Part shown: in pieces, positions 1,516 to 53,809 of the stretch
Position numbering within the stretch: the first letter of the stretch is position 1
Layout of the letters: every line of letters starts with the position of its first letter
DNA from: Candidatus Omnitrophota bacterium
Lineage (GTDB): Bacteria > Omnitrophota > Gorgyraeia > Zapsychrales > Zapsychraceae
DNA: 64,000 bases
NCBI GenBank assembly: GCA_023247445.1
Contig: JAHFGL010000002.1
Span: 64,553 to 128,552 of the forward strand
Direction: 5' to 3'
Translations under genes and position numbers: made by a program
The notes under the pieces: model-generated
The model's input: only the letters and a program-made list of their open reading frames with translations
Told to the model about the DNA's origin: nothing
The model's database searches: none

Positions 1516-1806
1516 ACCCGGATTTTGCAATAGCAAAATCCGCATTGACTTTCCTTAAATTTTTCATTGTAGTCAATACTGCACTGGTTATTTCTGGTAG
1601 AAAAAGTCAATGCAGTACTGATTACAAAAGTTAACGTTAAGGAAAACCAGTGCCGCCCAAAGGGCCGACAAAGTTGATATCGTCGGAGATATCGACAACT
1701 TTGGCGGGGTAATTCCATAATTTTGAACGCACATTTTTGTACATAAATTATGTGTGCGTGCAAAATTTGGGATAAAATACATTTTCTTTTAAAAAGGTTA
1801 TTCGTT

Positions 1807-3624
1807 ATGAGACAACGACAGCAAAAATTTTTGATTTTTATTTTAATGATGACAGCGATGCTTGTTTCGCCCATTCGTATAGCTTTCGCTCAAGTAAATG
1901 ATGCTCTATCATTGGATGGGATTAGTATTAGCCCAGAAGATATGCAAAAAGTTTGGGGATCACTAGATGCCGTTAGCGATCCCAATATTCGTGAAATGCT
2001 TCGATTAAAGTTAGAAGGAAAAACAGTTGCTGATATTGCTGCGCAGATGGGAGTCAGTGAGGAGGAAGTTGGCCGTTCGCTTATGACAGGAGCAATGATT
2101 CTTAAAAATGTAATCAATGTACAAGGTGGGGCCCAACCAACAGAAGAATTAACTTCTGAGACAATATCAGATAATTATTCAGCAGGTCCAGAAGGGAATG
2201 CCAAAGTTGTCGCTCATGGAAATACTAAGTCACGGCTTTTGGATGTCCTTGATTTAAAGAATATGGATATTCTCGATGTTCTTAAATTGATCTCACAGAA
2301 AACAGGGCTCAACATTGTGGCTAGTCAAAATGTTAAAGGCCGAATTACGGTTTATCTGAAAAATATCGACGTTTTAGAAGCTTTAAAGATTATTGTTAAT
2401 TCTTATGCGTGGGCTTATGGGAAAGAAGGCGAAACTGTCATGGTTATGACGGATAAAGAATTTCAGGACAAATATGGTTATAAATTTGGAGAAGATTTTG
2501 AGACACGGATAAAAAAGTTGATTTATGCCAGCGCCACCGATGCCTTGGCAATTTTAAATCAGGTAAAATCTAATTCCGGTAAGATCATTGCTGAGGAGAA
2601 ATCAAACACACTTATTTTAATGGACACGGTTGTGAAGCTTGATGAAATGGAAAATATTTTGAAACAAATTGATGTGGCCACTCAAACCCAGGTTTTTAAT
2701 TTAAGTTATGCGAAAGCAGAAGATATTTCGACGAAGATTACGGAAATTCTAACGCCCAATATTGGGAAGATGAAATTTGATGAGCGTTCTAATCGCGTCG
2801 TTGTCTCGGATACACCGCGTAAAATAGAAGAGATTAAGAAGTTTGTTGATGCCTTTGATCAACAACATAAAGAAGTTCTTATTGAGGCAAAAATTATTCA
2901 GATCACACTCGATGATACGCATAAAATGGGCGTTAATTGGGAAACTGTAGTTGCTAATTATCATAATTTGGATTTAACTTCTAATTTTGATATTCTAAGT
3001 ACAACAGATAAAAGAGGCAAGATAACGGTTGGAACAATTGCTGACGACAGATATATCGCTACCATTGAAGCGCTCGATACGGTTGGAACCACCGATATTC
3101 TCTCTAGCCCACGTATTACTACCGTCAATAATAAAGAGGCGAAGATTTTGGTTGGTTCAACAGAGCCTTATGTGACGACAACAACAACGACGCCAGCAAC
3201 TGGGCCAACAACAACAGCAGAGAGTGTTAATTTTATTGAAGTGGGTGTAAAATTATTTGTTACTCCAACAATTCATAATGATGATTACATTACGATGAAG
3301 ATTAGACCTGAAGTAAGTTCGGTTGTTAGAAGTTTAACGACGAGTAATAATAACAGCATTCCTATTGTTGAAACGTCCCAAGCGGAAACAACCGTGATGG
3401 TTAAAGATGGGGCGACTATTGTTATCGGTGGGTTGATGAAAGAATCAAAAACTAAATCGGTTAAGAAAGTTCCCCTGTTGGGTGATATTCCTTGGCTGGG
3501 AGGAGCATTTAAGAGTACCAATGATTCGGTGCAGAAGACCGAAATAGTTATCTTTTTATCTCCTCGGATTGTCACCGGAGACATCCAAGGAAATACTCCA
3601 GTAACCACTTCGTTAGCCAAATAG
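1807..3624 (+). CDS. secretin (GspD/MshL/PilQ family) with N-terminal sigma-70 region-4-like segment
   Basis: signal peptide MRQRQQKFLIFILMMTAMLVSPIRIAFA; N0-like domain; C-terminal secretin signature VKDGATIVIGGLMKESKTKSVKKVPLLGDIPWLGGAFKS..EIVIFLSPRIV; ORF track starts at 1750 but ATG at 1807 precedes the signal peptide. Confidence 0.8.
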   Translation: MRQRQQKFLIFILMMTAMLVSPIRIAFAQVNDALSLDGISISPEDMQKVWGSLDAVSDPNIREMLRLKLEGKTVADIAAQMGVSEEEVGRSLMTGAMILKNVINVQGGAQPTEELTSETISDNYSAGPEGNAKVVAHGNTKSRLLDVLDLKNMDILDVLKLISQKTGLNIVASQNVKGRITVYLKNIDVLEALKIIVNSYAWAYGKEGETVMVMTDKEFQDKYGYKFGEDFETRIKKLIYASATDALAILNQVKSNSGKIIAEEKSNTLILMDTVVKLDEMENILKQIDVATQTQVFNLSYAKAEDISTKITEILTPNIGKMKFDERSNRVVVSDTPRKIEEIKKFVDAFDQQHKEVLIEAKIIQITLDDTHKMGVNWETVVANYHNLDLTSNFDILSTTDKRGKITVGTIADDRYIATIEALDTVGTTDILSSPRITTVNNKEAKILVGSTEPYVTTTTTTPATGPTTTAESVNFIEVGVKLFVTPTIHNDDYITMKIRPEVSSVVRSLTTSNNNSIPIVETSQAETTVMVKDGATIVIGGLMKESKTKSVKKVPLLGDIPWLGGAFKSTNDSVQKTEIVIFLSPRIVTGDIQGNTPVTTSLAK

Positions 3625-13063: not shown

Positions 13064-13741
13064 ATGAGATACGACACCTTAATAATTGAACCACTTAGGG
13101 AAATGTTAGTTAGAGTAGCTGGTTTTATCCCCACTTTGTTCATCGCTCTTGGTATCCTAATTGTCGGCTGGGGGGTTGTTAAAATCTTTAGCAACCTGTT
13201 TACTCGATTCTTACATAGAATCGGGTTTGACACCTTAATCGACTCAATTGGGTTAACCAAGTTCTTACGAACAGGTGGATTAAAACATAAACCCAGCGAA
13301 CTGTTAGGCTGCATCACGTATTCGATCTTGATGGTTATGGTATTAATTATGACCGTCAAATCGTTTGGCTTAACAGTTGTTTCTGAGCTCGTAGACACAA
13401 TCTTGGCCTACATACCAAATGTTGTTTCAGGGGTTGTTACCTTGATTATTGGTATGGTGATTGCTCGATTTGTCTCAGCGCTTGTGTATATCACGGCTAA
13501 AAATACTGATATGCCAAGCCCAGCGACGTTAAGCCGCTTGAGCAAATTAGCGATCATGGCTTATGTTGTGATTCTATTCCTTAAGCAAATCGGCTTTGTC
13601 TCATTATTTGTCGATGGTAATTTTACTGTTATGACAACAGGTATCGTTTTTGCCTTAAGCTTGGCCTTCGGTCTTGCTGGCAAAGATGTTGCAGGTCGAT
13701 ACTTGGATGTATTTAACATTAAAAAAGCCCATCATAAATAG
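13064..13741 (+). CDS. multi-pass membrane protein (conserved TM-helix repeat type)
   Basis: repeated hydrophobic helices, SD aaaggagg 8 nt upstream of ATG. Confidence 0.5.
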   Translation: MRYDTLIIEPLREMLVRVAGFIPTLFIALGILIVGWGVVKIFSNLFTRFLHRIGFDTLIDSIGLTKFLRTGGLKHKPSELLGCITYSILMVMVLIMTVKSFGLTVVSELVDTILAYIPNVVSGVVTLIIGMVIARFVSALVYITAKNTDMPSPATLSRLSKLAIMAYVVILFLKQIGFVSLFVDGNFTVMTTGIVFALSLAFGLAGKDVAGRYLDVFNIKKAHHK

Positions 13742-13910: not shown

Positions 13911-16900
13911 ATGCAAAGACTATATATTATAGAGAAGAGTACCAAGCGTCTTTGGACCCGTTTTATATCTGCTTTTGTCGTTTTTGCCTTTAGCATCAAT
14001 GTTATTATTCCGCCAAGTTACGCGCAATCAACTCCCACACTTTTAAATTTACCTGCGCCGGGAACTATGGTCATGACGACCCCAATCTATCATCCTGCTT
14101 TGGTCAAAGGGCTCATGATTTATCCAGACAATCCGCTTAAATTTGATTTTATTATTGATAAAGGCGACACCAAGCTTTCCGATGAAGATTTCAAAAAAGA
14201 ATCGACCAAGTTAATTAAATATTTCTTGGCGTCGTTGACGACCCCAGAAAAAGAGATGTGGGTGAATCTTTCTCCGTATGAAAAAGACCGCATTATTCCG
14301 CAAGGCTTTGGCCAGACGGAAATGGGCCGCGACATGTTGGCGCAAGATTATTTGCTTAAACAATTATCTGCATCGTTAATGTATCCCGAAGGTGATTTGG
14401 GAAAATCGTTTTGGGATCGGGTGTATAAGAAAGCGAAAGAGAAATTTAATACAACCGATATCCCGATGAATACTTTTAACAAGATTTGGATCGTTCCGGA
14501 AAAGGCACTGGTGTATGAACATGAAAAGGGCGCGTTTGTGGTTAAATCGCATTTAAAGGTTATGCTTGAGGAGGATTATCTGGCGCTTGAGGCCAATAAA
14601 AATTCCACGAAGCACGGCTTGGGTGATGTGAAGAGAGAAGATCTGAAAGTTATTAGCGGCGTGCAGTCGCAAGTTGTTAGAGAAGTTCTGATCCCTGAGA
14701 TTGAGAAGGAAGTTAATGAAGGCAAAACTTTCGCGAACTTAAGACAGATTTTTAATTCGGTTATCTTGGCGAGCTGGTACAAACAGGCCTTAAAAGAAAG
14801 TTTGCTTGGCAAATTTTACGTGGATAAAAGTAAAAACAAGGGTATTGAGGTTGAGGATAAGCAGATTAATCAAAAGATTTATGATCAATATGTCGCGGCT
14901 TTTAAAAAGGGTGTGTACGACTATATTAAAGAAGATTACGATCCGAATACACAGCAGATCATTCCTCGAAAATATTTTTCGGGTGGAGTTGTTGCCGCTG
15001 TAGGGGTTGATACAACTGATGCTAATGATAAGGCAACATCAGAAGCTGTTGCTGATGCTGTTGCGGATCTTGCTGACCCAACCCAAGGCGCTACAGTAAC
15101 AACAACATTGGGTTCCGTTGGCAGTCAGATCACAGAAGGTCAAGATGCTATTACGACATTTTTTGCGAAACCTCGAAGTCGTCGAGATTTTGGCCGAGGA
15201 TCTTTGTTGGCTGCTGCTGTGGCTGCTTTTGGTAGTGGAGTTCTTAGTCGTCGCGCTTCTGCTACAGAAACACAGCAAGTAACTGTTAAAAGTGATATTG
15301 TGCAATGGGTTAATTTTGAGAAAGAAGGAATTGCCGTTGATCCTGTTGTTAGTCAATTAATGGATCGTGCCAAGATTCAAGGTCAAACCGTTGCCATTGT
15401 CCGTAGTTTACCGGCATGGAAACGGTTAATGAATGATTGGAAGGCAGATGCGGGATTTCCAGCACCTCCTTTTGGTGTGAGAACTCAAATCCCCGGAGGA
15501 AGACTCGCCCTTGTTCTTGCCTATGCGCCTATGATGGGCAATGGAGAATATGATTTGTTAGCGCATGAATTATTTCATGAGATTATTGCTTCAAGACAAG
15601 AACCTCAAAGAGGTATTGTTTTTTCTCAAGCACCACTTATTATTAATGATTTTGTAGGAATTATTGAGCAACTACCTCAAAAAGATGCTGTAGCCTTTGA
15701 ACAATTATTGAAATGGATCTATGAAGAATATTTTACGGAATCGGAACGAAGTAAGGGAGGATCGTATTCAATTAAATACTCAATTAAAGGTAACGGTGGA
15801 AGACAAGCTGTAAGTTCTGTTGGCGCCTTTGCCGTCGATGAGCTAATGACTTTCATTTGGCATTGGGGTCAATATGGAAATTTGCCAGGATTACAGGAGA
15901 GATTTGATAAATTAACGCCTGATGAAAAGGCATACTTTAAAAATGTTAGTGGAACGGATCAAAGGATCCGAAGCTTTCTTAATCAAAGCGACCAGAAAAC
16001 AAGAGAAGTTTTTAGAAGATATTTTGAAGATACGCTGCATGTTCCTGTTCCCCGTTTGTTTCAGATAGAGCAAGATCCCGCGATGCTGACGGGGCGAAGT
16101 TTATTGCTAGGAATCGCCTTGAGTGGGTTATTAACTGTGTTTGGAGGTGGATGTTCATCTATGAAAAATAGTCCGCTTACGGCGGCACAACAAGTACAAG
16201 GAATCGTTGACAGTGGAAAAGAAATAAAGATTATATCTCGAGAAGATGCCAAAAAAGAATTTGGAGAATTTTATAATAGAGCTCTAGATGTAGGGAAAAA
16301 AATTACAGACGAAAAGTATGGTCAGGTAATAAACGATGCCAATGATTTAATTGCAACAATAGATGCGAAATTAGCTCAAGGGGGATATACAACAGCAAAA
16401 GGATCAGTAGATGATTTTGAAGGGATCAAAACAGCTCTTAAATATTATAAACTCACAGCGGCGACGGCTATTTTAAAAGCAAATTTAGGTGAACTAAATG
16501 AGTTGGCCAGTAAGGCTTTAGCAGGAGAATTTTTTGCCAAGGCAGGAGATGATCTAGCTAAGGAAGGGAATGGTCCAGCTAGTAAGGAAAAATATGGCGA
16601 GGCTCGTGAAAGTTGGAAAGAAGTCCAAGGAAGAATTGGTGGTCTAATTAACCGTTTAAGTGTAATTGAAGGTGAAAATGTCATTGTCGCTCCTGGTAAA
16701 GGTAGTGCCGCTCCAACCACAGGGCCAGCAGATACTTTTGTTAACCAAGCTAGAGATGCCCAGGAAAGAGCAAGAAAAGGTTTAGAGAAAATTGGCGACG
16801 ACGAAGCGATGTTCAGTGAAAAGGTTGGGTTGGAACTACTTCCTGAGATAGCCGCACATATGAGCGACCCCAATTGGCGTCTGATTGTTGGCCCTGAAGG

Positions 16901-19900
16901 GTTGCTTAAGGTTACAGAAGTTGATCTTGAAAAACAAACAATAACCGTCGTTAGAGAAGGTAACTTGGGGTATTTTTATGTTTCGCGTGGTGGGGATAAT
17001 AGCACGGTCAAGGCACAAAGAGGTCGGCCAACGACAGTCACAGTTAATCAATATTCAAACTTTGCGTTATGGGGCAGTAGGGCCGGATATGAGATGACTA
17101 GAAACAATGCCTTTAGGGCATTTAAAAATCATCGTTGGGTTCCTCATTTGTTTGGGCTAGATGCTATTTATAAACGTTTAGTTGATTCTCCCAAAGCCGA
17201 TTCTATTCTAGAAAAAGTTTTCATCGAAGTTTTCCCAGGACCAGAGCCTATAGGGCAGAAATTAAAAACATTATATGATTCAATATCTTCCAAAACTGTT
17301 TTTCGCACGGAATACAACGATAAAATAAAAGAGATTATTTTGCAGTATTATAGGCAAACAGGAGAGGATCTTATTCGTGCAGGTGTTTTAGAGTCTTTTC
17401 TTAGAGAAGATGCTGATCAAAAAGTTTGGCCGATATTTCATCGAGATGGTGGGACCAATGCAGCGGCCTGGCCATCTATAGGTAATGTCCCTTCGGATGT
17501 TGACTTTTATTTTCGTGAACAAATGTTTAACCAAGGTGTAAACCTTTTGAATAAAGATGAACAAGCAGATCCCATTATTGGATTAAATACTTATTATCCA
17601 ACTTATCGTAATGAGCATAGATCGGATGAATTTAGTCAGAGAATTATTAGGGCTCAAACAGACTTTGAAGAAGGAAGAAGGTTGGCTCAAGAAAATGCGA
17701 GTCGTTTAAAAGATGCCTTAGTGGGACAAGGAATCGATATTAAGGATATTGATTTAATTGTTCCTGTTCCTTCGTTTAAACCCGAAACCAGTCAAGTTGT
17801 TCCCATGACTGATGAATTGTCAAAAGCTCTTAATATTCCAACGAATCCAGCGGCTTTTAAGAAAATCCGTTCAACAGAAAATCAATCAACAATAAGAAAC
17901 CTTTTTGAACGGATTATTAATGTGGTTGGTGCTTTTGAGGCTGATTCACAAGCACTGGCGAATAAGACTGTTCTTATTTTTGATGACAATGTGACGACAA
18001 AAGCTACTTTGTTGGAATTAGCCCGTGTCACCATGGAAGCAGGAGCCAAACGGGTTATTTTAGTGGCTTTGGGAAAAACAATTGAAAAAGATCGTATAGC
18101 TCAAGACGACGCCGCGATGCTGACGGTTGATGAGAAATTTATAACGCAGTTTAACGTTGTTCGTCGTCAGTATTTAAGGGCGATAAGACAGGGAGAGCCA
18201 ACGCATGAGATCCACGATTTAGCTGGGATGGTTATTGAATATATAAAAGGAATTGAAATCCTTTTGGAAGATAAGGCGGCCAAAGGAAATCTCGAGGCCA
18301 AAGTCGCCCTTGATGATTTTCGAGAGATTTTTAATCCCATCGATGATTTGAGATCTCCTGGAGGGAAAGACCGTATCAAAACTAACGAGCCTGAAAGAGA
18401 AGCGGCGGATCGTGAATTTATTATTGAATTTCAATCAAATATAAGATTAAAACAAGTACTGAGAAACATTGAATCTAAACTTTTGGGTGAAGATATTGCG
18501 CGAGCGGCGGGGCTCGATCAAAAAGGGCAAGTCATGTTGGAGAGATATGTGGAAATATTGGCGGCACTCAATAATAAGAGTCTTACTGAAAGCATCGACC
18601 GTTTTGAGCGCGAGACAGATCAAGATGTCCTTGGTCTATTTAATAGAACCCAACCCATTTTGTTCGCTATTTTGCAAGATCCTTTGGAGAAACAGGCCAA
18701 AACGATTACTTCATTAGATGAATTCCTTCGGTTAAGTGATGAAATTCGATATCAATTAAATATGAACGCTTCGCGTGATTTCTTGAGCGCCGCTGAGATC
18801 GCAGATGTAGAGGCGGATAAAAAAGATTTAGGATGGTTACGACAAAGACGTTTTGGACTCTCGCAGACTCAAGGAAAGCTGCGATCTAAAGCTGGCGATT
18901 CAGGGAGAGTTACGGATAATATTGAAATTATTGATGCATCGATCGTTCGTCTTGGTGGAAATTTGGATGACTTTGCGATGTTGACCAATGCAGTTGCGAT
19001 CGCTCAAGAAGCCCTGGATCGACTTAAGAAGGAAACATCAAAAGGGCTTAAGCCACCTTTAGTTATTTTAAGTATTGGTGATGAGGAGACAATCGCAGAT
19101 TACGAGCTTTCATTTAGTAACTTTAGAGATAGAGTTAAAGACGTTGAGAATCTTCTCTCTCGTTTATTGCTAGAGATTGAAAAAGCACCTGTTACATTAG
19201 TGGGCAACATTCAACTTTTAAGCGATGTGGATTTAGATTTTTCTATCATGGAAGAATCTTTAGAAAAAATACGAGATTTAACCGAAACACTCCGTGGAGG
19301 CGAGGGAAGGTTTAATCCTGTCATGGTTGAGCATGTGGCTAATTCAATAAGTGGAGAAATACTATTCGGGCGAGATCAAGTCAACTCATCGCCAGCGCAG
19401 TTATTAAGGGCACTGCGTGAGCTGATAAAATGTTTAGAAATAAAAATAGTGCAAAAATATGAAGCTTTACCAGCATCTGAAAAAATGGTGTTCCCAAAAG
19501 AAGCTATTAGAGAACAACTAGCTCAAACCCGTATAACTTTCTTTATTGACGATTTTATGGAGAAACTAAATATTCCGATTAGACAAAAAGCAGAGCTTGT
19601 AAGATTCTTTCGTGAATTAGGGCTAAACGAGGTCGAAGAGGAGACGTTGCCGGGAACGGGTCTTTGGGAGAATTTGTACAGTAATGCATTGTTTAAGCCA
19701 AAGTTGATGCCGATAGTTTTACACAAAAAATATCCATATTACCACGACTTCGTCGCTGATCCTGGTTATACTGTAAGCGTGCGGGACGCTCGTGGACTTG
19801 AGATTATATCGATGAAAAGAAATGGCACAGGTCAAGTAACAATAAACAATGGAGAGCAATTAACGGCTCGAGCTCGGCCCTTTAGAAGTCCTGCCAGTGA

Positions 19901-20324
19901 TTCAATGTCGGAAGGCGCTGGATATAATTTTGACGCGATGGTCGTTAATGATCAACTAATCATTATCAATATGGGCGATACGCCAATTACCATTAAACTT
20001 GATGAAGCACTGGTGACAAAAAAGGCGGAGTATGGTGGTATCGACATGAATCCGATGATTCTAGAGCGTGAGGTTCAAAAGAATGGTCACGGCGTGATTA
20101 TTCCGATGCCGACCGGCCCGATGCCGGATATGCGTAATATCGAAGGTTTTGTGCCAAGTATTATTAACATCGCGCCAGTTACCAACTTGCCGCTTCTATT
20201 AGGAATTGTAACGCCTAATCAAGCTCCGGTCTCATCTGGTTCTGATACAAATTCCCCCGCAGGTGACTTAGGGTTTTATGACAAGTCAAAATTTTCAAGA
20301 GAAATCGAATTGACTAACATCTAA
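13911..20324 (+). CDS. giant (2137 aa) multidomain protein: signal peptide, possible HExxH motif, internal TM helix, ComF-type phosphoribosyltransferase domain
   Basis: uninterrupted ORF; N-terminal signal FISAFVVFAFSINVIIPPSYAQ; LLAHELFHEI at nt ~15564; hydrophobic segment SLLLGIALSGLLTVFGGG at nt 16082-16150; PRTase motif VPVPSFKP...GAF....NKTVLIFDDNVTTKATLLELARVTMEAGAKRVILVALGKT at nt ~17745-18080. Confidence 0.75.
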   Translation: MQRLYIIEKSTKRLWTRFISAFVVFAFSINVIIPPSYAQSTPTLLNLPAPGTMVMTTPIYHPALVKGLMIYPDNPLKFDFIIDKGDTKLSDEDFKKESTKLIKYFLASLTTPEKEMWVNLSPYEKDRIIPQGFGQTEMGRDMLAQDYLLKQLSASLMYPEGDLGKSFWDRVYKKAKEKFNTTDIPMNTFNKIWIVPEKALVYEHEKGAFVVKSHLKVMLEEDYLALEANKNSTKHGLGDVKREDLKVISGVQSQVVREVLIPEIEKEVNEGKTFANLRQIFNSVILASWYKQALKESLLGKFYVDKSKNKGIEVEDKQINQKIYDQYVAAFKKGVYDYIKEDYDPNTQQIIPRKYFSGGVVAAVGVDTTDANDKATSEAVADAVADLADPTQGATVTTTLGSVGSQITEGQDAITTFFAKPRSRRDFGRGSLLAAAVAAFGSGVLSRRASATETQQVTVKSDIVQWVNFEKEGIAVDPVVSQLMDRAKIQGQTVAIVRSLPAWKRLMNDWKADAGFPAPPFGVRTQIPGGRLALVLAYAPMMGNGEYDLLAHELFHEIIASRQEPQRGIVFSQAPLIINDFVGIIEQLPQKDAVAFEQLLKWIYEEYFTESERSKGGSYSIKYSIKGNGGRQAVSSVGAFAVDELMTFIWHWGQYGNLPGLQERFDKLTPDEKAYFKNVSGTDQRIRSFLNQSDQKTREVFRRYFEDTLHVPVPRLFQIEQDPAMLTGRSLLLGIALSGLLTVFGGGCSSMKNSPLTAAQQVQGIVDSGKEIKIISREDAKKEFGEFYNRALDVGKKITDEKYGQVINDANDLIATIDAKLAQGGYTTAKGSVDDFEGIKTALKYYKLTAATAILKANLGELNELASKALAGEFFAKAGDDLAKEGNGPASKEKYGEARESWKEVQGRIGGLINRLSVIEGENVIVAPGKGSAAPTTGPADTFVNQARDAQERARKGLEKIGDDEAMFSEKVGLELLPEIAAHMSDPNWRLIVGPEGLLKVTEVDLEKQTITVVREGNLGYFYVSRGGDNSTVKAQRGRPTTVTVNQYSNFALWGSRAGYEMTRNNAFRAFKNHRWVPHLFGLDAIYKRLVDSPKADSILEKVFIEVFPGPEPIGQKLKTLYDSISSKTVFRTEYNDKIKEIILQYYRQTGEDLIRAGVLESFLREDADQKVWPIFHRDGGTNAAAWPSIGNVPSDVDFYFREQMFNQGVNLLNKDEQADPIIGLNTYYPTYRNEHRSDEFSQRIIRAQTDFEEGRRLAQENASRLKDALVGQGIDIKDIDLIVPVPSFKPETSQVVPMTDELSKALNIPTNPAAFKKIRSTENQSTIRNLFERIINVVGAFEADSQALANKTVLIFDDNVTTKATLLELARVTMEAGAKRVILVALGKTIEKDRIAQDDAAMLTVDEKFITQFNVVRRQYLRAIRQGEPTHEIHDLAGMVIEYIKGIEILLEDKAAKGNLEAKVALDDFREIFNPIDDLRSPGGKDRIKTNEPEREAADREFIIEFQSNIRLKQVLRNIESKLLGEDIARAAGLDQKGQVMLERYVEILAALNNKSLTESIDRFERETDQDVLGLFNRTQPILFAILQDPLEKQAKTITSLDEFLRLSDEIRYQLNMNASRDFLSAAEIADVEADKKDLGWLRQRRFGLSQTQGKLRSKAGDSGRVTDNIEIIDASIVRLGGNLDDFAMLTNAVAIAQEALDRLKKETSKGLKPPLVILSIGDEETIADYELSFSNFRDRVKDVENLLSRLLLEIEKAPVTLVGNIQLLSDVDLDFSIMEESLEKIRDLTETLRGGEGRFNPVMVEHVANSISGEILFGRDQVNSSPAQLLRALRELIKCLEIKIVQKYEALPASEKMVFPKEAIREQLAQTRITFFIDDFMEKLNIPIRQKAELVRFFRELGLNEVEEETLPGTGLWENLYSNALFKPKLMPIVLHKKYPYYHDFVADPGYTVSVRDARGLEIISMKRNGTGQVTINNGEQLTARARPFRSPASDSMSEGAGYNFDAMVVNDQLIIINMGDTPITIKLDEALVTKKAEYGGIDMNPMILEREVQKNGHGVIIPMPTGPMPDMRNIEGFVPSIINIAPVTNLPLLLGIVTPNQAPVSSGSDTNSPAGDLGFYDKSKFSREIELTNI

Positions 20325-21630: not shown

Positions 21631-24600
21631 ATGAAGAGCTCCCCATCGAATGCGTTTTCATTCCCTGAAGTCAGAGTTGTTGAAGCCAGCGCCGGTTCCG
21701 GCAAAACTTTTGCCCTCGCCAAACGTTATATCCAACTTCTTCTTCACCCGTCTTTAACGGTTGACTCCATTCCGATGCGCTCGATTTTGGCAATTACCTT
21801 TACCAACAAAGCTGCCTTCGAGATGAAATCGCGTATTTTGGAATTCTTAAAGTGTATAGCGCTCAAGAAATTATCCGCCGCGCAAGACAATGAGATTCTA
21901 AAGCCGCTAGGGATTAGCCAAGAAGAGGCGAGTGGCAAGGCCTTTCAAATCATGGAGGTCTTGATCCATCATTACAATTTCTTTCAGGTTCAAACTATCG
22001 ACAAATTTATTAACGCGCTTCTTTCCGGATGTGCTTTTAAAATTGGATTAACCGCCAACTTTAAAATTAAAACGAATTCTTACGAATATCTCGAATACAG
22101 CTTGGATCAATTGATCGATCAGGCGGCCCACCACAAAGAATTATCTAAGATATTTCAATATTTTCTTCACAACTATTTGTATCTTGAAAATCGGACGGGC
22201 TGGTTCCCGAAAGAGGATATGCTTTCGATTATGCTGGCCCTTTTTCGTCATCACAATACTTATGGGCTGGATTTTAAGAAAAGTTCGTTGACTCCGGAAG
22301 ATTTGATTAAGAAAAAGAAATCAATCTTGGCGGAGATGAAGACACTACGTTCTATCTTGCCAGAATCGACAGATTTACGTTTTGTTAAGAGTTTTGATAA
22401 GTTCTTGGCGAACACATCAGGCACTTTCGATGTCGATAGTTTGTCAGATTATTTCTTACGCGAGGCGATTCCTATCAAGAAAGGAACAGAAGTTTCTGAT
22501 GAGGCTGACAAACTTTGGGTCAAGATACGAAGTGGAATCCAACAAGTTTGTGAAGAAGAGGCCTATTCACTTTTTAATCCGTATGTTCAGTTGTATTCGT
22601 ATGTCGCCACAAATTTTTATCAGCTTTCGGCCAAAGATGATGTGCTATTTTTGGAGGAATTAAATAAAAGGGCGAGCCGACTTTTTGATAATGAGTATGT
22701 AACGGTTGAAGAACTTTATTTTCGTCTGGCAACGCGTTTTCGTCATTACTTAATTGATGAGTTTCAAGACACCAGCCGCCTGCAGTGGCTTAACATTGAG
22801 AAAATGGCCGAAGAGGCGTTGGCCACCGGCGGATCACTCTTTTATGTGGGCGATCGTAAGCAGGCGATTTATGGATTCCGCGGTGGAGAAGTCACGCTTT
22901 TTGATCAACTTAAAACACAATTTGATGCCTTTAATATTAAAGTCGATTATCTGACCAACAATTGGCGCAGCCAGCGTGCGATTGTCGAATTTAATAATTC
23001 TATTTTCTCCCTCGATAATTTGAAACGATTTATTCGCGAAAAGGAAACCTATGAAGAAGAGAAAAATAAGCGCGGGATGATTGCCTTTAGTGATGACGAT
23101 TTTAACGCGCTGGCCGATATCTTTAAAGGCGCGCAGCAAACGTTTCAGCCGAAGTACAAAGATGGTTACGTCAAAATCGAATATATTGGCTTGGACAAAA
23201 AGGAAGATCGCGATGAAGAAATTCGCACGAAGGTCGTCAGCCTTGTGAAAGATTTACGCAATCGATTTTCTTATCGCGACATCGCAATCTTGACTCGCAG
23301 CAACCAGCAAATTGAGGATTTAACTAACTGGCTCTTGGCCGAAGGAATCTTGGTCGAGTCGGAACGTACCTCTAGCGTCAAAGAGAATCATCTGATTAAA
23401 GAATTGATTTCTTTCCTGAAGTTTTTAGATTCTCCTATCGACAATCTTTCGTTTGCCTCATTTATCCTGGGTGATATTTTCAAGAAGGCCTCGGGATTGT
23501 CAGAATCTGAATTACACACCTTTGTCTTTAAATCACGTGAGCACTTGGCCAATAACAAAGATGCTTATTTATACATGGCGTTTCGGCAGGCGTATCCAGA
23601 AGTTTGGGAGCGTTTGATTAATGAGTTTTTCAAAAATGTCGGACTGTATCCATTGTATGAACTGGTCATTAGCATTTATCATCGATTGAATTGTTTGATT
23701 AATTTTTCCGAGGCGCAAGGATTCTTGATGCACTTTCTTGAACTCATCAAAGAAGAGGAAGAAGATCACGGCGACATCACGTCATTTCTTGATTATTTTG
23801 AGCAGTTGGAGGGCGCCGATTTATTTGTTGCGGTGACCGATACGGATGCGGTCAAAATATTGACAGTTCACAAGGCGAAGGGTTTGGAATTTCCCATCGT
23901 TATAATTCCGTTTCTAGGAATGGACGTTCAGGTTGGGTCGCAGGGCGCGGATCAGCAGCAATCGTATATTGTTAAACGGGATAGTGCCGCCATTGAGCTC
24001 ATTCGTCTTAAGACTAAATATTTAAGCTTTTCAGAGGAGCTGTATCAAATTTATGCGGATGAATATAAGAAGGCGCTGCTTACGGAATTAAATAATGTTT
24101 ATGTCGCGTTAACCCGCGCGCAGTATGAGCTGTATGCTTTTATTCCCAAAAGAATTCAAAACAGTTTTAATCTGGTCAAGTTTCTTATCCCTGAAGATAA
24201 TTTTGAAGCGGGTGTGCAGCACACCTATGATATCAAGCTGTCAGCTGCTGATTCGATCAAGCAATTGCCGCCTTCGCAATATCATGATTGGATTGATTAT
24301 TTGAAGGATGAGTTTTTAGATTTAAACGAACTTAAGAATAGAGAAGAAAGGCGCCGGGGGGAAATTTTACATTTTATGTTATCGTTTGTGGGAAATCTGA
24401 AAGAGGCGAATAAGAAGGAAATCATCCATCGCGCCGCCCAAGAAGCAAAAACACATTTTGCTCAAACAGCTGACTTAACCGCGCATGTTAACTTATTAAA
24501 CCAGTTGTTGGATGAGCCTGCGCTCAAACAATTCTTTTATGTTGATGCGGATGTTAAGACCGAACAGGATGTGGTCAATGCTGTTGGACATCCCAAGCGA

Positions 24601-24789
24601 ATTGATCGGCTTATTATTAAAAAAGATGAAATTATCGTCGTTGATTACAAAAGTTCAGCCCATCCGCAAGATGTGTATCGGGATCAGGTCAAAGATTATT
24701 GTTTAATTGTCCGCGAGATGTATCCGAAGCATCGCGTGAAGGGATATTTGATTTATTTAGATAGTTTTAAGGTTGAAGAAGTTCTCTGA
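21631..24789 (+). CDS. AddA/RecB-like helicase-nuclease (UvrD helicase domain plus C-terminal PD-(D/E)XK nuclease)
   Basis: Walker A ASAGSGKTFAL, FTNKAAFEM, DEFQDTS, GDRKQAIYGFRGG, TVHKAKGLEFPIV, C-terminal IIVVDYKSS nuclease motif. Confidence 0.8.
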   Translation: MKSSPSNAFSFPEVRVVEASAGSGKTFALAKRYIQLLLHPSLTVDSIPMRSILAITFTNKAAFEMKSRILEFLKCIALKKLSAAQDNEILKPLGISQEEASGKAFQIMEVLIHHYNFFQVQTIDKFINALLSGCAFKIGLTANFKIKTNSYEYLEYSLDQLIDQAAHHKELSKIFQYFLHNYLYLENRTGWFPKEDMLSIMLALFRHHNTYGLDFKKSSLTPEDLIKKKKSILAEMKTLRSILPESTDLRFVKSFDKFLANTSGTFDVDSLSDYFLREAIPIKKGTEVSDEADKLWVKIRSGIQQVCEEEAYSLFNPYVQLYSYVATNFYQLSAKDDVLFLEELNKRASRLFDNEYVTVEELYFRLATRFRHYLIDEFQDTSRLQWLNIEKMAEEALATGGSLFYVGDRKQAIYGFRGGEVTLFDQLKTQFDAFNIKVDYLTNNWRSQRAIVEFNNSIFSLDNLKRFIREKETYEEEKNKRGMIAFSDDDFNALADIFKGAQQTFQPKYKDGYVKIEYIGLDKKEDRDEEIRTKVVSLVKDLRNRFSYRDIAILTRSNQQIEDLTNWLLAEGILVESERTSSVKENHLIKELISFLKFLDSPIDNLSFASFILGDIFKKASGLSESELHTFVFKSREHLANNKDAYLYMAFRQAYPEVWERLINEFFKNVGLYPLYELVISIYHRLNCLINFSEAQGFLMHFLELIKEEEEDHGDITSFLDYFEQLEGADLFVAVTDTDAVKILTVHKAKGLEFPIVIIPFLGMDVQVGSQGADQQQSYIVKRDSAAIELIRLKTKYLSFSEELYQIYADEYKKALLTELNNVYVALTRAQYELYAFIPKRIQNSFNLVKFLIPEDNFEAGVQHTYDIKLSAADSIKQLPPSQYHDWIDYLKDEFLDLNELKNREERRRGEILHFMLSFVGNLKEANKKEIIHRAAQEAKTHFAQTADLTAHVNLLNQLLDEPALKQFFYVDADVKTEQDVVNAVGHPKRIDRLIIKKDEIIVVDYKSSAHPQDVYRDQVKDYCLIVREMYPKHRVKGYLIYLDSFKVEEVL

Positions 24790-24794
24790 GTTTT

Positions 24795-24869
24795 CGTCAT
24801 CCTGAGCGTAGCGAAGGATCCCAGAATATCTTAAATGCTTTGAGATTCTTCGCTGCGCTCAGAATGACG
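24795..24869. repeat. palindromic structured repeat, copy 2
   Basis: cgtcatcctgagcgtagcgaaggatc ... gagattcttcgctgcgctcagaatgacg. Confidence 0.8.
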
Positions 24870-24871
24870 TC

Positions 24872-25180
24872 TTGAGGATATTTGTATATATGGATAAGCA
24901 ATCATATGTTTATATTTTATCTAACAAAAGCAACTCGGTTTTATACACCGGCGTTACGAGTGATCTAATAAAGAGAATTTATGAGCATAAGCATAAGTTG
25001 GCTGATGGATTCACAAAGAAATATAACGTAGATAAATTAGTATATTTTGAAGTTTTTGACGATATTGAACAGGCTATATTGCGGGAGAATCAAATTAAGG
25101 GATGGGTAAGAGTTAAGAAATTGGCCTTAATTGAATCGAAGAATTCGAATTGGAAAGATTTATATGGAAATATTTTATGA
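24872..25180 (+). CDS. small GIY-YIG nuclease family protein (UPF0213-like, 102 aa)
   Basis: YVYILSNKSNSVLYTGVTSDLIKRIYEHK (GIY-YIG core) ... ILRENQIKGW; flanked on both sides by repeat-element halves. Confidence 0.75.
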   Translation: MRIFVYMDKQSYVYILSNKSNSVLYTGVTSDLIKRIYEHKHKLADGFTKKYNVDKLVYFEVFDDIEQAILRENQIKGWVRVKKLALIESKNSNWKDLYGNIL

Positions 25181-25212
25181 GATCCTTCGTCCCTTCGGGA
25201 CTCAGGATGACG
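25181..25212. repeat. half-copy of the palindromic repeat (right arm)
   Basis: gatccttcgtcccttcgggactcaggatgacg matches right arm of the cgtcatcctgag family. Confidence 0.7.
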
Positions 25213-28017
25213 GAGCGTAAAGTGAATAAAATTATCACTTACAGTTTTTGTGAACCGTTTATCGATCGCCTAGCCGATTATCTTGAAGAGAATTATATTA
25301 AAAAAGGTAAGGATCTTGGACGTGTGGCTATTGTCTTTGGCGGTAAGAGACCGAGTCTCTTTACAAAACGCGAGTTGGCTCGGCGCATCAAAAAGAGTTT
25401 TTATCCACCACGATTTTTTACGATCGATGAATTTGTGGGTTATACCATTCAAAAGAAAGAAGCCTTTAGCGCGCCGCAGGATTTGGACAGCTGCTATTTT
25501 TTATATCAGCTGATTTCAAAAGTTACGCCTGATCTTTTGAAAGGCCGAAACACCTTCGCGCAATTTCTGCCGTGGACACGCGAGATGTTATCATTTATCG
25601 ATCAGCTTGATTTAGAGATGATTGACGATGATGTTCTCAAAAATATTCAGATCAATGCCCAGATTGGTTACGCTGTTCCAACGGATATTAATCAAATGCT
25701 GCAAAGCATTATTAAGTTAAGAAATATTTATCATGATGAGCTTAAGGAAAAGAAGGTTTATACGCGCGGGTTTCAATATCTTCGTGCGGCGCAGGTTATT
25801 GATCAGGTTGATTTTAAAGAATTTGATGACATTTTGTTTTGTAACTTTTTTTATTTTCACCGAACAGAAGAGGCGATTGTAAAGAAACTCTACGATCAAG
25901 GCCAAGCGACATTAATTTTCCAGGGCGATCAACGTAAATGGCCGATTTTTACACGTATCGCTAAGAATTTTTCCTGCACGATCGAAGAGGGAAAGACCGT
26001 TGACATTCCGCAGTTTGACTTAAAATTATATCAAGGTGGTGACGTTCATGCCCAGGTCTGTCATGTCCGGGAAATTTTAAAAACAATTAAACATCTGGAT
26101 CGTACGGTCATCGTTCTTCCCAATCCTGATCATATCATCCCGCTTCTTTCTGAAATCACCGCCATTGCCAAAGATTTTAATATCTCGATGGGGTATCCAC
26201 TTAAGCGCAGCAGTCTTTATTCGCTGTTTGAATTTGTTTTTAAGACTCAGCTATCCCGACGTCAGCATGAATATTATGCGAAGGATTATTTAAAAGTTTT
26301 GCGTCATCCGTTTGTAAAAAATTTGAGTTTGGCGGAGAGTCCAACGATTACGCGAACTTTGATTCATAAGATTGAAGAAATTTTAACCGGCAAAGAACCG
26401 TCGGCTCTTTCTGGCCAACTCTTCTTTGAGTTGGAAGACATGGAAAGCTTAGATGAGCTTTTTATGTTAACACTCGAATCACTTGATCGATTGGGCATCA
26501 AAAGTAATCGCGATCAGTTACTTTTGATTTTGGAAGAGATTCATAATCTATTTTTCTTAGAATGGGAAAAGATTAATAATTTTGCCGTGTTTGCAGTTGT
26601 TTTAGAAAATTTTCTAGATGTTCTTATCGAAAAAAGCTTTCTCAAGAATTATCCATTGAATCTTAACATCGCGACGAAGATGTATGCGATTAAAGATGAA
26701 TTGGCGCAGACATCTTTTAAGGAAGAACATTTTTCCGCAGAAGAAATATTTAGAATCTTTGACGGAAAAATCAGCAGGGAAATGGTGGCCTTTGTTGGAT
26801 CTCCGCTACGAGGTTTGCAGGTCTTGGGTCTTTTTGAAACACGATCACTTAACTTTGAAAATGTTATTGTGCTCGATGTCAACGAAGGGACGTTACCAAA
26901 CTTGCGCATCTATGAACCGCTTATCCCGCGAGAAGTGATGATTAGCCTAAGTCTTGATCGATTGGAGCTGGAAGAAGAGATTCAGCGCTATCAATTCATG
27001 CGACTTATCTCGTCCGCAAAAAATGTACATTTAGTTTATCAACAGAGTAAAGATAAAGAACGAAGTCGATTTGTTGAAGAGCTTGTTTGGGAAAAGCAGA
27101 AGGAACTTAAGACATTAGATGTTCTGCCGATTGAACAGGCGAGTTTCGCTGTCCATGTTTCCTCGCAGAAAATAAGTGTTAAGAAGACAAAAGAAATGAC
27201 GGAATATCTAAGGCAAATTAAATATTCCGCGACGAGTATTAATACGTATCTGCGCAACCCTTTAGAATTTTATTACAAATATGTTTTGGGTTTGAAAGAA
27301 GAGGAAGACTTGTTAGATGAGCCGGAGGCGAGGCAAGTGGGGACGTTTGTCCATGAACTTTTGGAGGCAGCCTTTACACCGTTTTTAAAACGTAAACCGG
27401 AGATTAATGCTCACTTTCGCGAGCGATTTGCGCGGATGTTTGAAGAAAGATTTACAAACACCTTTGGCCGCAGCATGAAATCAGATTCATTTTTGTTAAA
27501 ATCCGTTTTAGTGGAACGGTTAAATCGATTTTTAGATAATGAACAATTTAATGAAGACCGCGCCGTTGAAGAAATTTTATATTTAGAGAATCATTTTGAA
27601 GATGTGGTTCCTCTTTCGTGCGGTGACATAAAGTTTCGTTATATCGTTGATCGCGTTGATCGTTTAAAAGACGGAACGATTGCGATCATTGACTATAAAA
27701 CAGGAAGCATTAATCAGATGCCCAAAGACATTAGTCGGATTTTGTCCACTTCCTCTTCGCGCGAATCGATTCGAGACAACGTTCGGTCTTTTCAAATTCC
27801 GCTTTATTTCTATTATCTCGACAAACAATATACAAATCAGCCCATCAATGCTGTTTTATATAATTTGAGAACTTTAGAGTTGCATCGTTTTATCGATGAT
27901 AAAATGACGTACAGCCGTGAGCAAATTAATAATGGATTTCTAAAGGCGTTAGATTTTATCATTACTGAAATCATAAACCCTGATGTGCCGTTTGTGGAAG
28001 ATCAACCACCCTATTAA
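25207..28017 (+). CDS. AddB-like PD-(D/E)XK nuclease/inactivated-helicase subunit
   Basis: C-terminal RecB-type nuclease motifs GTFVHELLE ... IAIIDYKTG; partner of upstream AddA-like gene; ORF track start 25150 lies inside the repeat (peptide ..GLRMTE), so ATG 25207 is preferred. Confidence 0.65.
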   Translation: MTERKVNKIITYSFCEPFIDRLADYLEENYIKKGKDLGRVAIVFGGKRPSLFTKRELARRIKKSFYPPRFFTIDEFVGYTIQKKEAFSAPQDLDSCYFLYQLISKVTPDLLKGRNTFAQFLPWTREMLSFIDQLDLEMIDDDVLKNIQINAQIGYAVPTDINQMLQSIIKLRNIYHDELKEKKVYTRGFQYLRAAQVIDQVDFKEFDDILFCNFFYFHRTEEAIVKKLYDQGQATLIFQGDQRKWPIFTRIAKNFSCTIEEGKTVDIPQFDLKLYQGGDVHAQVCHVREILKTIKHLDRTVIVLPNPDHIIPLLSEITAIAKDFNISMGYPLKRSSLYSLFEFVFKTQLSRRQHEYYAKDYLKVLRHPFVKNLSLAESPTITRTLIHKIEEILTGKEPSALSGQLFFELEDMESLDELFMLTLESLDRLGIKSNRDQLLLILEEIHNLFFLEWEKINNFAVFAVVLENFLDVLIEKSFLKNYPLNLNIATKMYAIKDELAQTSFKEEHFSAEEIFRIFDGKISREMVAFVGSPLRGLQVLGLFETRSLNFENVIVLDVNEGTLPNLRIYEPLIPREVMISLSLDRLELEEEIQRYQFMRLISSAKNVHLVYQQSKDKERSRFVEELVWEKQKELKTLDVLPIEQASFAVHVSSQKISVKKTKEMTEYLRQIKYSATSINTYLRNPLEFYYKYVLGLKEEEDLLDEPEARQVGTFVHELLEAAFTPFLKRKPEINAHFRERFARMFEERFTNTFGRSMKSDSFLLKSVLVERLNRFLDNEQFNEDRAVEEILYLENHFEDVVPLSCGDIKFRYIVDRVDRLKDGTIAIIDYKTGSINQMPKDISRILSTSSSRESIRDNVRSFQIPLYFYYLDKQYTNQPINAVLYNLRTLELHRFIDDKMTYSREQINNGFLKALDFIITEIINPDVPFVEDQPPY

Positions 28018-47273: not shown

Positions 47274-49025
47274 ATGGCCTCATTAAAAGACGATTTAAAA
47301 AAAATTCTTTTGCGCGACAATCTTATTTCTCCGGAAGATCTTACGCGCGCTGTTGAGGAGCAAAAAAAAACAGGAGGAGAGTTAAGTAGAATTCTTGTCC
47401 AGCTTAATGTCATCAGTGAAGATGTCTTGACCCAAGTCTTAAGCGAAGGGCTTGGCCTTCCCCCCATTAATATTGCCCGTCTTAAAATTGACCCGAACGT
47501 TGTAAAACTCATCTCCAAAGAATTAGCCATTAAATATAAGATTATTCCGATTTCACTCATGGGTGATCATTTAGCCTTGGCCATGGCGGATCCGCTTAAT
47601 ATTTTTATCATTGATAATATATCGGCATTGACGGGATATATCATTGATCCGATTGTTGGTCGATCTAAAGATATTGAGCAGACTATTCAAAAATATTATG
47701 TCGAGGTCGATACGGGGGCTAAACCATCAGAAGCTTTTGATAGTATTATTAAAGATTTCAAAGATGGTGGTGATTTAGAATTAGTTAAAGATTCCTTGGC
47801 TGATGCCAAGGGCGGTGGGAAGGTTGAGGAATTAACAGATGACGCCCCTATTATTAAATTAGCGGACACAATCATTCAGCAAGCTGTTGCCGCCAAGGCC
47901 AGTGACGTTTTTATCGAACCTTTAGAAAAAGCGATGCGTGTTCGTTATCGCGTGGATGGAGTTATTCGTGAAATTGATCGCATGTCAAAGGTACTTCATG
48001 CCCCACTTATTTCGCGTATTAAAGTTATTTCTAACCTAGATATCTCGGAACATCGTCTTCCTCAAGATGGCCGATTTAAAACGATTATTTCTGAAAATCG
48101 AGAAGTTGATTTTCGTGTTAATGTTTTACCGACGGCATTAGGGGAGAAGGTGGTTCTTCGTGTTTTAGATAAAACAGGATTTGTTTTAGATATTGATAAG
48201 TTAGGATTTGAGCCCAAGGCCTTAGAGCAACTAAAAGAATGTGGCCTAAGACCACATGGTTTGATTTTAACGTGTGGTCCAACCGGCAGCGGGAAAACAA
48301 CAACACTTTATTCTATTCTTAAACATGTTGATTCCCCCACAAAGAATATCGTAACGGTTGAAGATCCCGTGGAATTTCAGATTAAGGGATTGAATCAAGT
48401 TAATATTAAACCTGCGATGGGGCTTACTTTTCCAACGAGCTTACGGTCAATTCTTCGTCAAGATCCAGATATTATCATGATTGGTGAAATCCGCGATGCT
48501 GAGACACTCGACATTGCGATTAAAGCCGCGTTAACAGGGCACTTGGTTTTAAGTTCATTACATACAACAACAGCCGCGGGATCTATTGTGCGTATGATGA
48601 ATATGGGGATTGAACCATTTCTTATTTCTTCCTCGGCCTTAGCTATTGTTGCCCAACGGCTTTTGCGTAGGTTATGTCCTCGCTGCAAAGAAAGTTATGT
48701 TCTGCCGCCTGAGGTAGTTAAGGAAGTTGGACTAACTCGATTAACTTCGTCAAAGAAGGTTGAGCTATTTAAAGCCAAGGGATGTGAGCAATGTTATAAG
48801 TTGGGTTATCGTGGTCGTGTTGGGATTAATGAAATGTTGCTTTTTACCAACAAGATTAAGGAAGCCGTCTTGGCGGAAGAAGGGGAAATAAAGATTAAAG
48901 AAATTGCGCGATTAGAGGGCATGCGCACCATGCGTGAAGATGGACTTGTCAAAGCCTTGGCGGGATTAACAAGTTTGGAAGAAGTTTTAAGAGTTACAGC
49001 CCCGGATGAAAATTTAGAAGATTAA
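47274..49025 (+). CDS. pilB: type IV pilus/T2SS assembly ATPase PilB/GspE, copy 1
   Basis: Walker A GPTGSGKTTTLYS, Asp box, His box, tetracysteine CPRC...CEQC. Confidence 0.9.
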   Translation: MASLKDDLKKILLRDNLISPEDLTRAVEEQKKTGGELSRILVQLNVISEDVLTQVLSEGLGLPPINIARLKIDPNVVKLISKELAIKYKIIPISLMGDHLALAMADPLNIFIIDNISALTGYIIDPIVGRSKDIEQTIQKYYVEVDTGAKPSEAFDSIIKDFKDGGDLELVKDSLADAKGGGKVEELTDDAPIIKLADTIIQQAVAAKASDVFIEPLEKAMRVRYRVDGVIREIDRMSKVLHAPLISRIKVISNLDISEHRLPQDGRFKTIISENREVDFRVNVLPTALGEKVVLRVLDKTGFVLDIDKLGFEPKALEQLKECGLRPHGLILTCGPTGSGKTTTLYSILKHVDSPTKNIVTVEDPVEFQIKGLNQVNIKPAMGLTFPTSLRSILRQDPDIIMIGEIRDAETLDIAIKAALTGHLVLSSLHTTTAAGSIVRMMNMGIEPFLISSSALAIVAQRLLRRLCPRCKESYVLPPEVVKEVGLTRLTSSKKVELFKAKGCEQCYKLGYRGRVGINEMLLFTNKIKEAVLAEEGEIKIKEIARLEGMRTMREDGLVKALAGLTSLEEVLRVTAPDENLED

Positions 49026-49026
49026 T

Positions 49027-50736: not shown

Positions 50737-50805
50737 TTTTTTCGTTATTTTCAATAGTTTAATTAATGTTAAAATAAAAACACCTTAATAAACCAAGGAG
50801 TTGGC

Positions 50806-51267: not shown

Positions 51268-51268
51268 G

Positions 51269-53782: not shown

Positions 53783-53809
53783 TTGATAACTTGTTATCTG
53801 TGCTATAAT
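53783..53809 (+). promoter_or_regulatory. candidate promoter upstream of pilA (TTGATA-15-TGcTATAAT) overlapping GATAAC-TTG-TTATC palindrome
   Basis: ttgata 53783-53788, extended -10 tgctataat 53801-53809; spacer only 15 nt. Confidence 0.25.

Follow-up and report, generated by a model that had tools for sequence, protein, structure and literature searches.

A 64,000-nucleotide stretch of a Candidatus Omnitrophota genome (GenBank assembly GCA_023247445.1, contig JAHFGL010000002.1, positions 64,553 to 128,552; below, the window) contains an open reading frame (ORF) for a protein of 2137 amino acids plus stop (13911..20324, + strand; coordinates are those of the window). The protein is a member of a very large modular 'beads-on-a-string' family that is restricted to Omnitrophota and has thousands of architectures. 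A putative Sec-type signal peptide is followed by a conserved N-terminal module (N-module), a linker, five cargo modules, termed A (with a HExxH motif), B, C (with a phosphoribosyltransferase, PRTase, domain), D and E, and a conserved C-terminal module (C-module). The preliminary description of this gene, made by inspection of the sequence, regarded the PRTase as part of a one-off fusion in which no other domain could be recognized. Instead, the family has many interchangeable cargo modules, of which the PRTase is one, and both termini of the protein are family-defining modules. We interpret the protein, with moderate confidence, as a Sec-exported and possibly processed multi-module carrier, in which the PRTase is one cargo enzyme and the junctions between modules are read by a trans-acting partner.

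The gene is real and intact. It has an ATG start codon preceded by a Shine-Dalgarno-like GAGGAG and contains no internal stop codons; the family-typical N-module lies at its start and the C-module at its end. An identical protein (P0001) is on record in NCBI/ENA on a 162.6-kb contig. All features named in the preliminary description were found in place. The protein has only two cysteines, none of them between residues 750 and 1690.

A search with the whole protein yielded 2,996 significant matches among 8,000 scored candidates. The best 120 relatives are proteins of 1.2–3.6 thousand amino acids from Omnitrophota metagenome-assembled genomes (MAGs), and they cover 15–23% of the query at 51–72% identity. 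The matches map to the ends of the protein: query residues ~5–360 are matched in all 119 listed relatives, and residues ~2040–2100 in nearly all of them. The middle parts of the relatives contain unrelated Pfam domains, mostly of cytoplasm-type enzymes. Among them are PGK, PGI, PGM, UDP-glucose pyrophosphorylase, PEPCK, isocitrate lyase, malate synthase, GAPDH, TIM, enolase, aldolase and PPDK, as well as response regulators, kinases and an M48 peptidase. The PGI modules of two relatives (P0104 and P0036) match the full Pfam PGI profile at 630–650 bits (e.g. 648), and because of these scores they are under strong purifying selection and probably catalytically active.

The N-module (residues 39–360; 14025..14990) includes the conserved segments WVNLSPYE, TEMGRDxLAQDYxLKQ, TFNKxWIxP, EVNxGxxFxxLRQ and PRKYFSGG. 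A search with this module against 1.84 billion representatives of 50%-identity clusters retrieved 8,053 proteins, 6,262 of them at E <= 1e-30. In the best 150 matches listed, the module is always N-terminal (residues ~35–360), while the size of the host proteins varies from 369 to 4,969 amino acids. The query module is 55–80% identical to those of all relatives and occupies the same position. Sixty-four of its positions are at least 97% identical across 286 sequences, and neither histidine nor cysteine is found among them. Profile scans of the query gave no Pfam or NCBIfam model for this region of ~322 residues, in which no known fold could be recognized; it is predicted to be mixed alpha/beta.

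The C-module (residues 2041–2101; 20031..20213; YGGIDMNP...GFVPSIINIAPVTNLPLLLG) lies within ~100 residues of the C-terminus and shows 40–55% identity in nearly all relatives. Its consensus, GGIDLNPxxLxLQIKRDGNGVPLPxxxQPxxxxxIxGFVPVIINIxPVxNLPLLLG, is followed by a polar/acidic tail, which is variable in sequence and in the query extends over residues 2102–2137 (20214..20321). The AlphaFold2 (AF2) model of the module has no secondary structure, with a predicted template-modelling score of 0.17. Since the sequence is proline-rich and the model unstructured, the module looks more like an extended recognition peptide than a transmembrane (TM) helix. A classical TM anchor was rejected in view of the prolines, the acidic tail and the lack of a helix in the AF2 model. 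The C-termini of many relatives end alike, in S-x-L-N or a similar sequence (EISALN, EVSYLN, ISLLN, FSLLN, VSVLN, IGYLN), which may be a further terminal motif; the query ends in IELTNI.

A scan of species-representative genomes confirmed at least 582 family loci. The best 80 loci are all in MAGs of Omnitrophota or in MAGs labelled 'uncultured Planctomycetales'; we read the latter as mislabelled, based on co-occurrence with the family only. Genomes have several paralogues, with up to six of the best 80 loci coming from one genome, and no second copy was found in the 64-kb window.

Short junction motifs stand between the cargo modules. In the query, all occurrences of A-M-[LFVIM] belong either to the motif D-x-A-M-[LF] or to one degenerate copy of it. 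The four regular motifs are DPAML (residues 722–726; 16074..16088), DEAMF (964–968; 16800..16814), DAAML (1400–1404; 18108..18122), three residues past the end of the PRTase domain, and DFAML (1687–1691; 18969..18983). The degenerate fifth motif, FDAMV (2007–2011; 19929..19943), is 34 residues N-terminal of the C-module. When the variable middles of 216 family proteins were scanned for k-mers in an unbiased way, with expectations derived from composition, there were 257 occurrences of D.AM (29 expected), 86 of D.AML (2.7 expected) and 129 of another motif, SSPV (2.4 expected). One family protein bears (P)DAAM[LT] 15 times. The two motif types exclude each other: 63 proteins carry two or more D.AM and lack SSP[VIL], 44 show the reverse, and one protein has both. 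Paralogues from one genome share the junction type, and the D-x-A-M and S-S-P types exclude each other also at the level of genomes. A third variant, D-x-A-V-L, occurs in proteins with neither D.AM nor SSP, and in the SSP lineages the motif is spelled A-S-S-P-V. Thirty-eight proteins, and the family members at loci L030 and L056 (both MHFY01) and L034 and L074 (both CAZWOH01), have none of the three variants; further lineage-specific variants or motif-free members probably exist.

The motifs mark the limits of modules. Their density is 1.1 per 1000 residues in the family compared with 0.07 per 1000 in ordinary neighbouring ORFs, a difference of ~15-fold, and the large neighbouring ORFs that do carry junction motifs are family members themselves. 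None of 70 motifs in 11 proteins lies inside a Pfam envelope, although the envelopes cover 20% of the sequence (P = 1.3e-7). The motif is typically 20–58 residues upstream of the first profile position of an enzyme, with an identical spacing of 58 residues in two PGI modules, and in the relatives it is also found 10–35 residues ahead of the GGIDLNP start of the C-module. In the query, the limits of module C coincide with the limits of homology to four PRTase-bearing paralogues. The codons at the conserved Asp and Ala vary synonymously and follow the general usage in the 80 loci, which argues for a signal at the peptide level. A signal in DNA or RNA, suggested by GCGATG at all five query junctions, was rejected for the same reason, and internal translation starts at the junction methionines were not supported, as no Shine-Dalgarno-like sequences precede them. 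The D-x-A-M occurrence in the IleS gene of the window (32933-35746) is a coincidence inside an ordinary isoleucyl-tRNA synthetase. We suggest that the junction motifs could be cleavage sites.

Module C (residues 967–1399; 16809..18107) consists of an N-terminal region that is common to four paralogues (P0024, P0035, P0100 and P0114) and a PRTase domain; homology to the paralogues covers query residues ~984–1410, that is, the module bounded by junctions 2 and 3. By homology, residues 1251–1397 (17661..18101) are a divergent type-I PRTase of the ComF/PsyrT/ShosT type. The hallmarks reported earlier were confirmed at nucleotides 17751-18080: VPVP, GAF, the phosphoribosyl pyrophosphate (PRPP) loop TVLIFDDNVTTKATL (nucleotides 17967-18011) and EAGAKRVILVALGKT. 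Profiles of PsyrT, ShosT, ComF and GntX all support this assignment. The best-scoring one is PADLOC PsyrT (57 bits, E = 2.7e-16), and PADLOC ShosT gives 38 bits (E = 4.1e-10). The NCBIfam profiles for GntX (PRK11595, E = 1.8e-7) and ComF (TIGR00201, E = 2.2e-7) are matched with 31 bits, far below the curated cut-offs of 304 and 233.55, respectively. The Pfam profile PF00156 (Pribosyltran) scores 20.2 bits, which is under its gathering threshold of 26.3 bits. The homologous modules of P0024 (39.9 bits), P0100 (35.7) and P0035 (28.7) pass this threshold and so support membership in the PRTase superfamily indirectly. A profile of the query and the four paralogues matches the PRPP loops of PRPP synthetase, PurF and ShosT in PDB. 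In a word-indexed search with the PRTase region, the sole stand-alone ComF-like relative was P0121, a canonical ComF of 255 residues with a double zinc ribbon and a PRTase domain; its pairwise identity to the query is 34% over 149 residues (E = 2e-18).

The earlier assignment to the ComF type holds for the type-I PRTase domain as such and fails for a bona fide ComF. The motif series of the query, D-x-IVPVP, N/S-Q, K-x-R-x-T-x-x-Q, R-x-x-N-x-x-GAF, hhhhDDxxTTxxT and AGAxxV, resembles that of ComF/ComFC/GntX (TIGR00201, PRK11595; PF18912 + PF00156), but the domain is embedded in a 2137-residue signal-peptide-bearing protein and has no zinc ribbon. We aligned the query and the four paralogue modules with two canonical ComF proteins, P0121 and an ORF from an Omnitrophota locus (L020). 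The zinc ribbon is missing in all five family modules, whereas both comparators have CxxC pairs. A five-residue deletion at the ComF motif RGYNQ, which removes R-G-Y and leaves 'SQ', is also common to all five. As to conservation of the PRPP loop, the acidic pair and the threonines are kept in the query (DDNVTTKAT), but K1364 replaces a conserved glycine that the paralogues retain. No linkage to a competence operon was found: the neighbours are an MscS-like protein, an ABC-2/GldG set, a fatty-acid hydroxylase and AddAB. A normal stand-alone ComF is present in at least one Omnitrophota genome, that of L020. This ORF (2267-3115 of the locus, - strand), with four CxxC pairs, RGYNQ and DDLFTTGAT, adjoins a family gene; the longest-ORF extension 5' of its likely start contains 'IASSPML', which resembles an SSP-type junction motif.

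The calls of signal peptides and TM segments are based on Kyte-Doolittle hydropathy and inspection of patterns. The predicted Sec-type signal peptide (residues 1–38; 13911..14024) has a K/R-rich n-region, an h-region FISAFVVFAFSINVII, a PP pair and a putative cleavage site SYA|Q; its hydrophobic segment, residues 18–36, scores 1.91. In the 42 aligned relatives, A38 and Q39 are conserved without exception. The positive n-region, the uncharged c-region and the invariant A-Q together point to a Sec signal. If so, the cargo would be located outside the cytoplasm, since in the enzyme-carrying members examined the N-module is followed by no TM-like segment ahead of the enzymes. The preliminary description proposed ~700 residues outside, one TM segment and ~1390 residues inside. 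This topology is not a family rule: 72 of the 120 relatives have no strongly hydrophobic internal segment, 42 of them having an N-terminal segment, a moderately hydrophobic C-module and an empty middle, and 30 an N-terminal segment only.

Two internal segments of the query do resemble signals. The low-complexity A/V/D/T linker (residues 361–452; 14991..15266) ends in a Tat-signal-like sequence by pattern, RSRRDFGRG...SRRASA (RSRRDFGRGSLLAAAVAAFGSGVLSRRASA; residues 422–451, nucleotides 15174-15263; hydropathy 1.41). Module B (residues 725–963; 16083..16799) begins with a lipoprotein-signal-like sequence, MLTGRS...GGGC (MLTGRSLLLGIALSGLLTVFGGGC; residues 725–748, nucleotides 16083-16154), that starts exactly at the methionine of junction 1. 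It includes the internal hydrophobic segment of the preliminary description, which was confirmed at residues 730–749 (Kyte-Doolittle 1.81). These two segments look like relics of once-independent exported proteins. They are not family features; signal-like segments directly after the N-module are found in some relatives. The common pattern of the family, with the cargo outside the cytoplasm, agrees with a DeepTMHMM survey of signal peptides and TM topology in giant multi-enzyme Omnitrophota proteins (Nielsen & Lui 2026 bioRxiv), yet it is biochemically puzzling.

In the proposed mechanism, the N-terminal signal would send the polypeptide through Sec, and the N- and C-modules would serve in handling or targeting and be recognized by conserved machinery whose genes lie elsewhere in the genome. 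The junction motifs would be recognition sites of a trans-acting partner that differs by lineage. This partner would most likely be an endopeptidase, so the cargo modules would fold separately and might be released as individual units. For the PRTase module, we propose the role of a PRPP-binding or PRPP-using cargo enzyme that acts in salvage of nucleotides or in interference, rather than that of a canonical DNA-uptake ComF. Several points weigh against this interpretation. The model of the N-module is moderately confident, and neither terminal module resembles a known targeting domain. No protease or transporter is linked to the family across 80 loci, where the best neighbour cluster occurs at 12 of 80; a conserved partner gene of either kind was sought beside the family genes, and only tandem paralogues recur. 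Homologues could be detected for just one of the five cargo modules, which leaves A, B, D and E as orphans. The PRTase domain may be catalytically impaired, given the replacement of the conserved glycine by K1364 and the score below the Pfam threshold. The junction motifs could be docking or structural elements instead of cleavage sites. The hydrophobic segments of the query at residues 427–445 and 730–749 could allow a membrane-spanning protein with a cytoplasmic PRTase, and export of PRPP-, ATP- or NAD-dependent enzymes would be biochemically odd.

Alternatively, the family members could be cytoplasmic metabolons tethered to the membrane, with the N-terminal segment serving as an anchor only or not being used for export, the junctions serving as flexible linkers or docking sites, and the C-module as a second attachment to the membrane or to a partner. 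The cargo is overwhelmingly of cytoplasm type and well conserved, as the full-length PGI match at 648 bits illustrates. Only one weak stand-alone PGI-like ORF was seen in ~1.3 Mb of flanking DNA, a small sample, and this would fit a scenario in which the fused copies do the work. Inner-membrane-anchored cytoplasmic enzymes have also been considered by Nielsen & Lui for giants that have TM segments only. However, positive charges precede the h-region and none follow it, so the positive-inside rule predicts an N-in orientation with the remainder of the protein outside; the A-x-A-like SYA|Q with its invariant A-Q suggests cleavage, and the proline-rich C-module is not predicted to be helical. We consider a tethered metabolon unlikely. 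Somewhat less probable still is a bespoke single-pass or multi-pass membrane protein, with the N-module and the HExxH region (residues 39–721) outside, residues 730–749 spanning the membrane and ~1390 residues with the PRTase in the cytoplasm, which would couple an outside event to PRPP/nucleotide chemistry or DNA uptake. The segment at 730–749 is strongly hydrophobic, a PRPP-dependent enzyme would sensibly reside in the cytoplasm, the sequence AHELFHEI agrees with the extended zincin pattern, and ~27 kb downstream there is a type IV pilus cluster. Against this, the relatives that have no internal TM segment carry cytoplasm-type enzymes, and the segment of the query begins at a junction methionine and resembles a relic lipoprotein signal; metallopeptidase homology was not found, and the PRTase has neither the zinc ribbon and RGYNQ nor linkage to competence genes.

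The signal-like segments could also be functional, if the protein were an 'operon in a protein' that is cut at the junctions in the cytoplasm and then sorted, the N-module by Sec, module A by the Tat-like and module B by the lipoprotein-like signal, while the PRTase stays inside. This would reconcile cytoplasmic enzymes with an N-terminal signal peptide, and it would account for the Tat-like peptide at 422–451, for the lipoprotein-like peptide that starts at a junction methionine, and for the segments after the N-module in some relatives. We regard it as very unlikely: no junction motif lies ahead of the Tat-like segment, most relatives have no internal signals, cleavage in the cytoplasm would have to compete with the co-translational targeting that the first signal directs, and cleavage itself is deduced from the motifs. 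The chance that the giant ORF is an artefact, with ordinary genes joined by a sequencing or assembly frameshift, is negligible. Four orphan modules, two of them starting with signal-like peptides, could give this impression; the uninterrupted frame, opened by the family N-module and closed by the family C-module as in thousands of independently assembled relatives, contradicts it, and the junctions are a family-wide peptide feature with no Shine-Dalgarno sequences before their methionines. The exported carrier with junctions read in trans is the interpretation we retain. An extension of it, to which we give little credence at present, is that predatory or host-dependent Omnitrophota use the family throughout the phylum as a delivery system. 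Chains of exported enzymes would be cut by a protease at the junctions and would act at the surface or in the prey or host to drain or rewire sugar and nucleotide metabolism, with the PRTase as a nucleotide-pool effector. Such a role is conceivable for the PRTase module because ShosT, for which no base substrate is known, binds PRPP and exerts its toxicity by way of purine metabolism (PMC11961720).

The remaining cargo modules have few recognizable features. Homology searches found no homologues of residues 446–965, that is, of modules A and B, and none of modules D and E. Module A (residues 453–721; 15267..16073) contains LLAHELFHEI, with a single HExxH (HELFH, residues 552–556, nucleotides 15564-15578); of shuffled versions of the protein, 1.3% contain one HExxH or more. 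The zincin of the preliminary description is thus a putative reading of the motif: Pfam, NCBIfam and PDB profile searches gave no metallopeptidase match to the module, and no homologues of it were found. Module B continues after its lipoprotein-like start as a polar, helical-looking orphan region. Modules D (residues 1403–1686; 18117..18968) and E (residues 1690–2006; 18978..19928) have no matches.

In the window, all gene-like ORFs of at least 100 codons are on the + strand and the cumulative GC skew rises monotonically, which has the appearance of strong co-orientation of genes on a single replichore. Two secretins are encoded in the window, a GspD-like (1750-3624) and a PilQ-like one (57266-58648). 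The latter belongs to a cluster resembling type IV pilus and type II secretion systems (47274-58648), with two PilB-type ATPases (47274-50736), PilC (51239-52477) and PilM (54675-55730). The two secretins and the pilus cluster indicate that the organism is a diderm bacterium. They are possible outer-membrane routes for exported proteins and are unlinked to the family gene. Other genes of the window include AddAB-like, IleS, MreB and PBP2 genes, the ABC-2/GldG set and the MscS-like protein. The latter is encoded directly upstream of the giant gene (13064-13741); it has 225 residues and two MscS-type 'conserved TM helix' domains (PF05552), matches full-length mechanosensitive channels partially, and may be a truncated or minimal MscS-like protein. 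Region 21631-28017 encodes an AddA/RecB-like helicase-nuclease (1052 residues) followed by an AddB-like PD-(D/E)XK protein (955 residues, TTG start), and a 102-residue ORF (24872-25180) overlaps the AddB start.

The bacteria of the phylum Omnitrophota are ultra-small, abundant and uncultured, and they are suspected to live as predators or parasites; their large multi-enzyme proteins are an open puzzle. With the N- and C-modules as conserved 'handles', all members of the family can be catalogued, and the lineage-specific junction motifs are the first concrete candidates for the cleavage points missing in earlier work. The question whether one giant protein or many products act, and where, becomes directly testable. 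Glycolytic and nucleotide enzymes annotated in Omnitrophota MAGs may be located in signal-peptide-bearing carriers; if this is true, metabolic reconstructions of Omnitrophota need a second look.

Among the known systems that include a similar PRTase, PsyrT and ShosT (PDLC03928, PDLC03962; PDB 8ZVB/8ZVC) also join a ComF-like PRTase to other domains. The match of the query is limited to the PRTase part, and no RecQ helicase or hydrolase/pyrophosphatase region is matched. PsyrT and ShosT are two-gene defence systems, whereas the query is a modular protein with a secretion signal. No DprA-like antitoxin gene was found next to the query, which is flanked by the MscS-like and fatty-acid hydroxylase genes.

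In other respects, the family resembles cargo of two-partner secretion (TpsA with its TPS domain) and of type IX secretion, in which a Sec signal and a conserved terminal targeting domain are combined with long variable passengers in many paralogues. The likeness is an analogy of logic. No similarity in sequence or fold was found: predictions give a mixed alpha/beta N-module instead of a beta-helix and an unstructured C-module instead of a beta-sandwich, and no TpsB or type IX secretion genes are linked. Viral and eukaryotic polyproteins consist of independently folding modules parted by short protease-recognition junctions. By analogy, the N/C-module family has a short conserved junction that varies with lineage, at which cleavage is putative. 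Also close to the family are the giant proteins of Omnitrophota, described as 'Archaeovorins' (West-Roberts et al. 2023 bioRxiv) and as 'multi-enzyme metabolic clusters' (Nielsen & Lui 2026 bioRxiv). Those giants have at least 10–30 thousand residues, many TM helices, and C39/S8 peptidase or SecA-like domains; the question of cleavage is open in both preprints, one of which states that the cleavage points are unknown. They share with our family the phylum and the stringing of sugar-metabolism and regulatory enzyme domains on signal-peptide-bearing proteins. In contrast, members of the N/C-module family have 0.4–5 thousand residues, usually no internal TM segments, and fixed ends and junction motifs. 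The query, with 2.1 thousand residues, differs from Archaeovorin- and dockerin-type giants also in that Pfam and NCBIfam scans gave no C39/S8 peptidase, SecA-like or dockerin domain. No description of the family or its junction motifs was found in the two preprints, Pfam, NCBIfam or the open-access literature. Thus, multi-enzyme Omnitrophota giants have already been described, and the new elements are the N/C-module family and its lineage-specific junction motifs.

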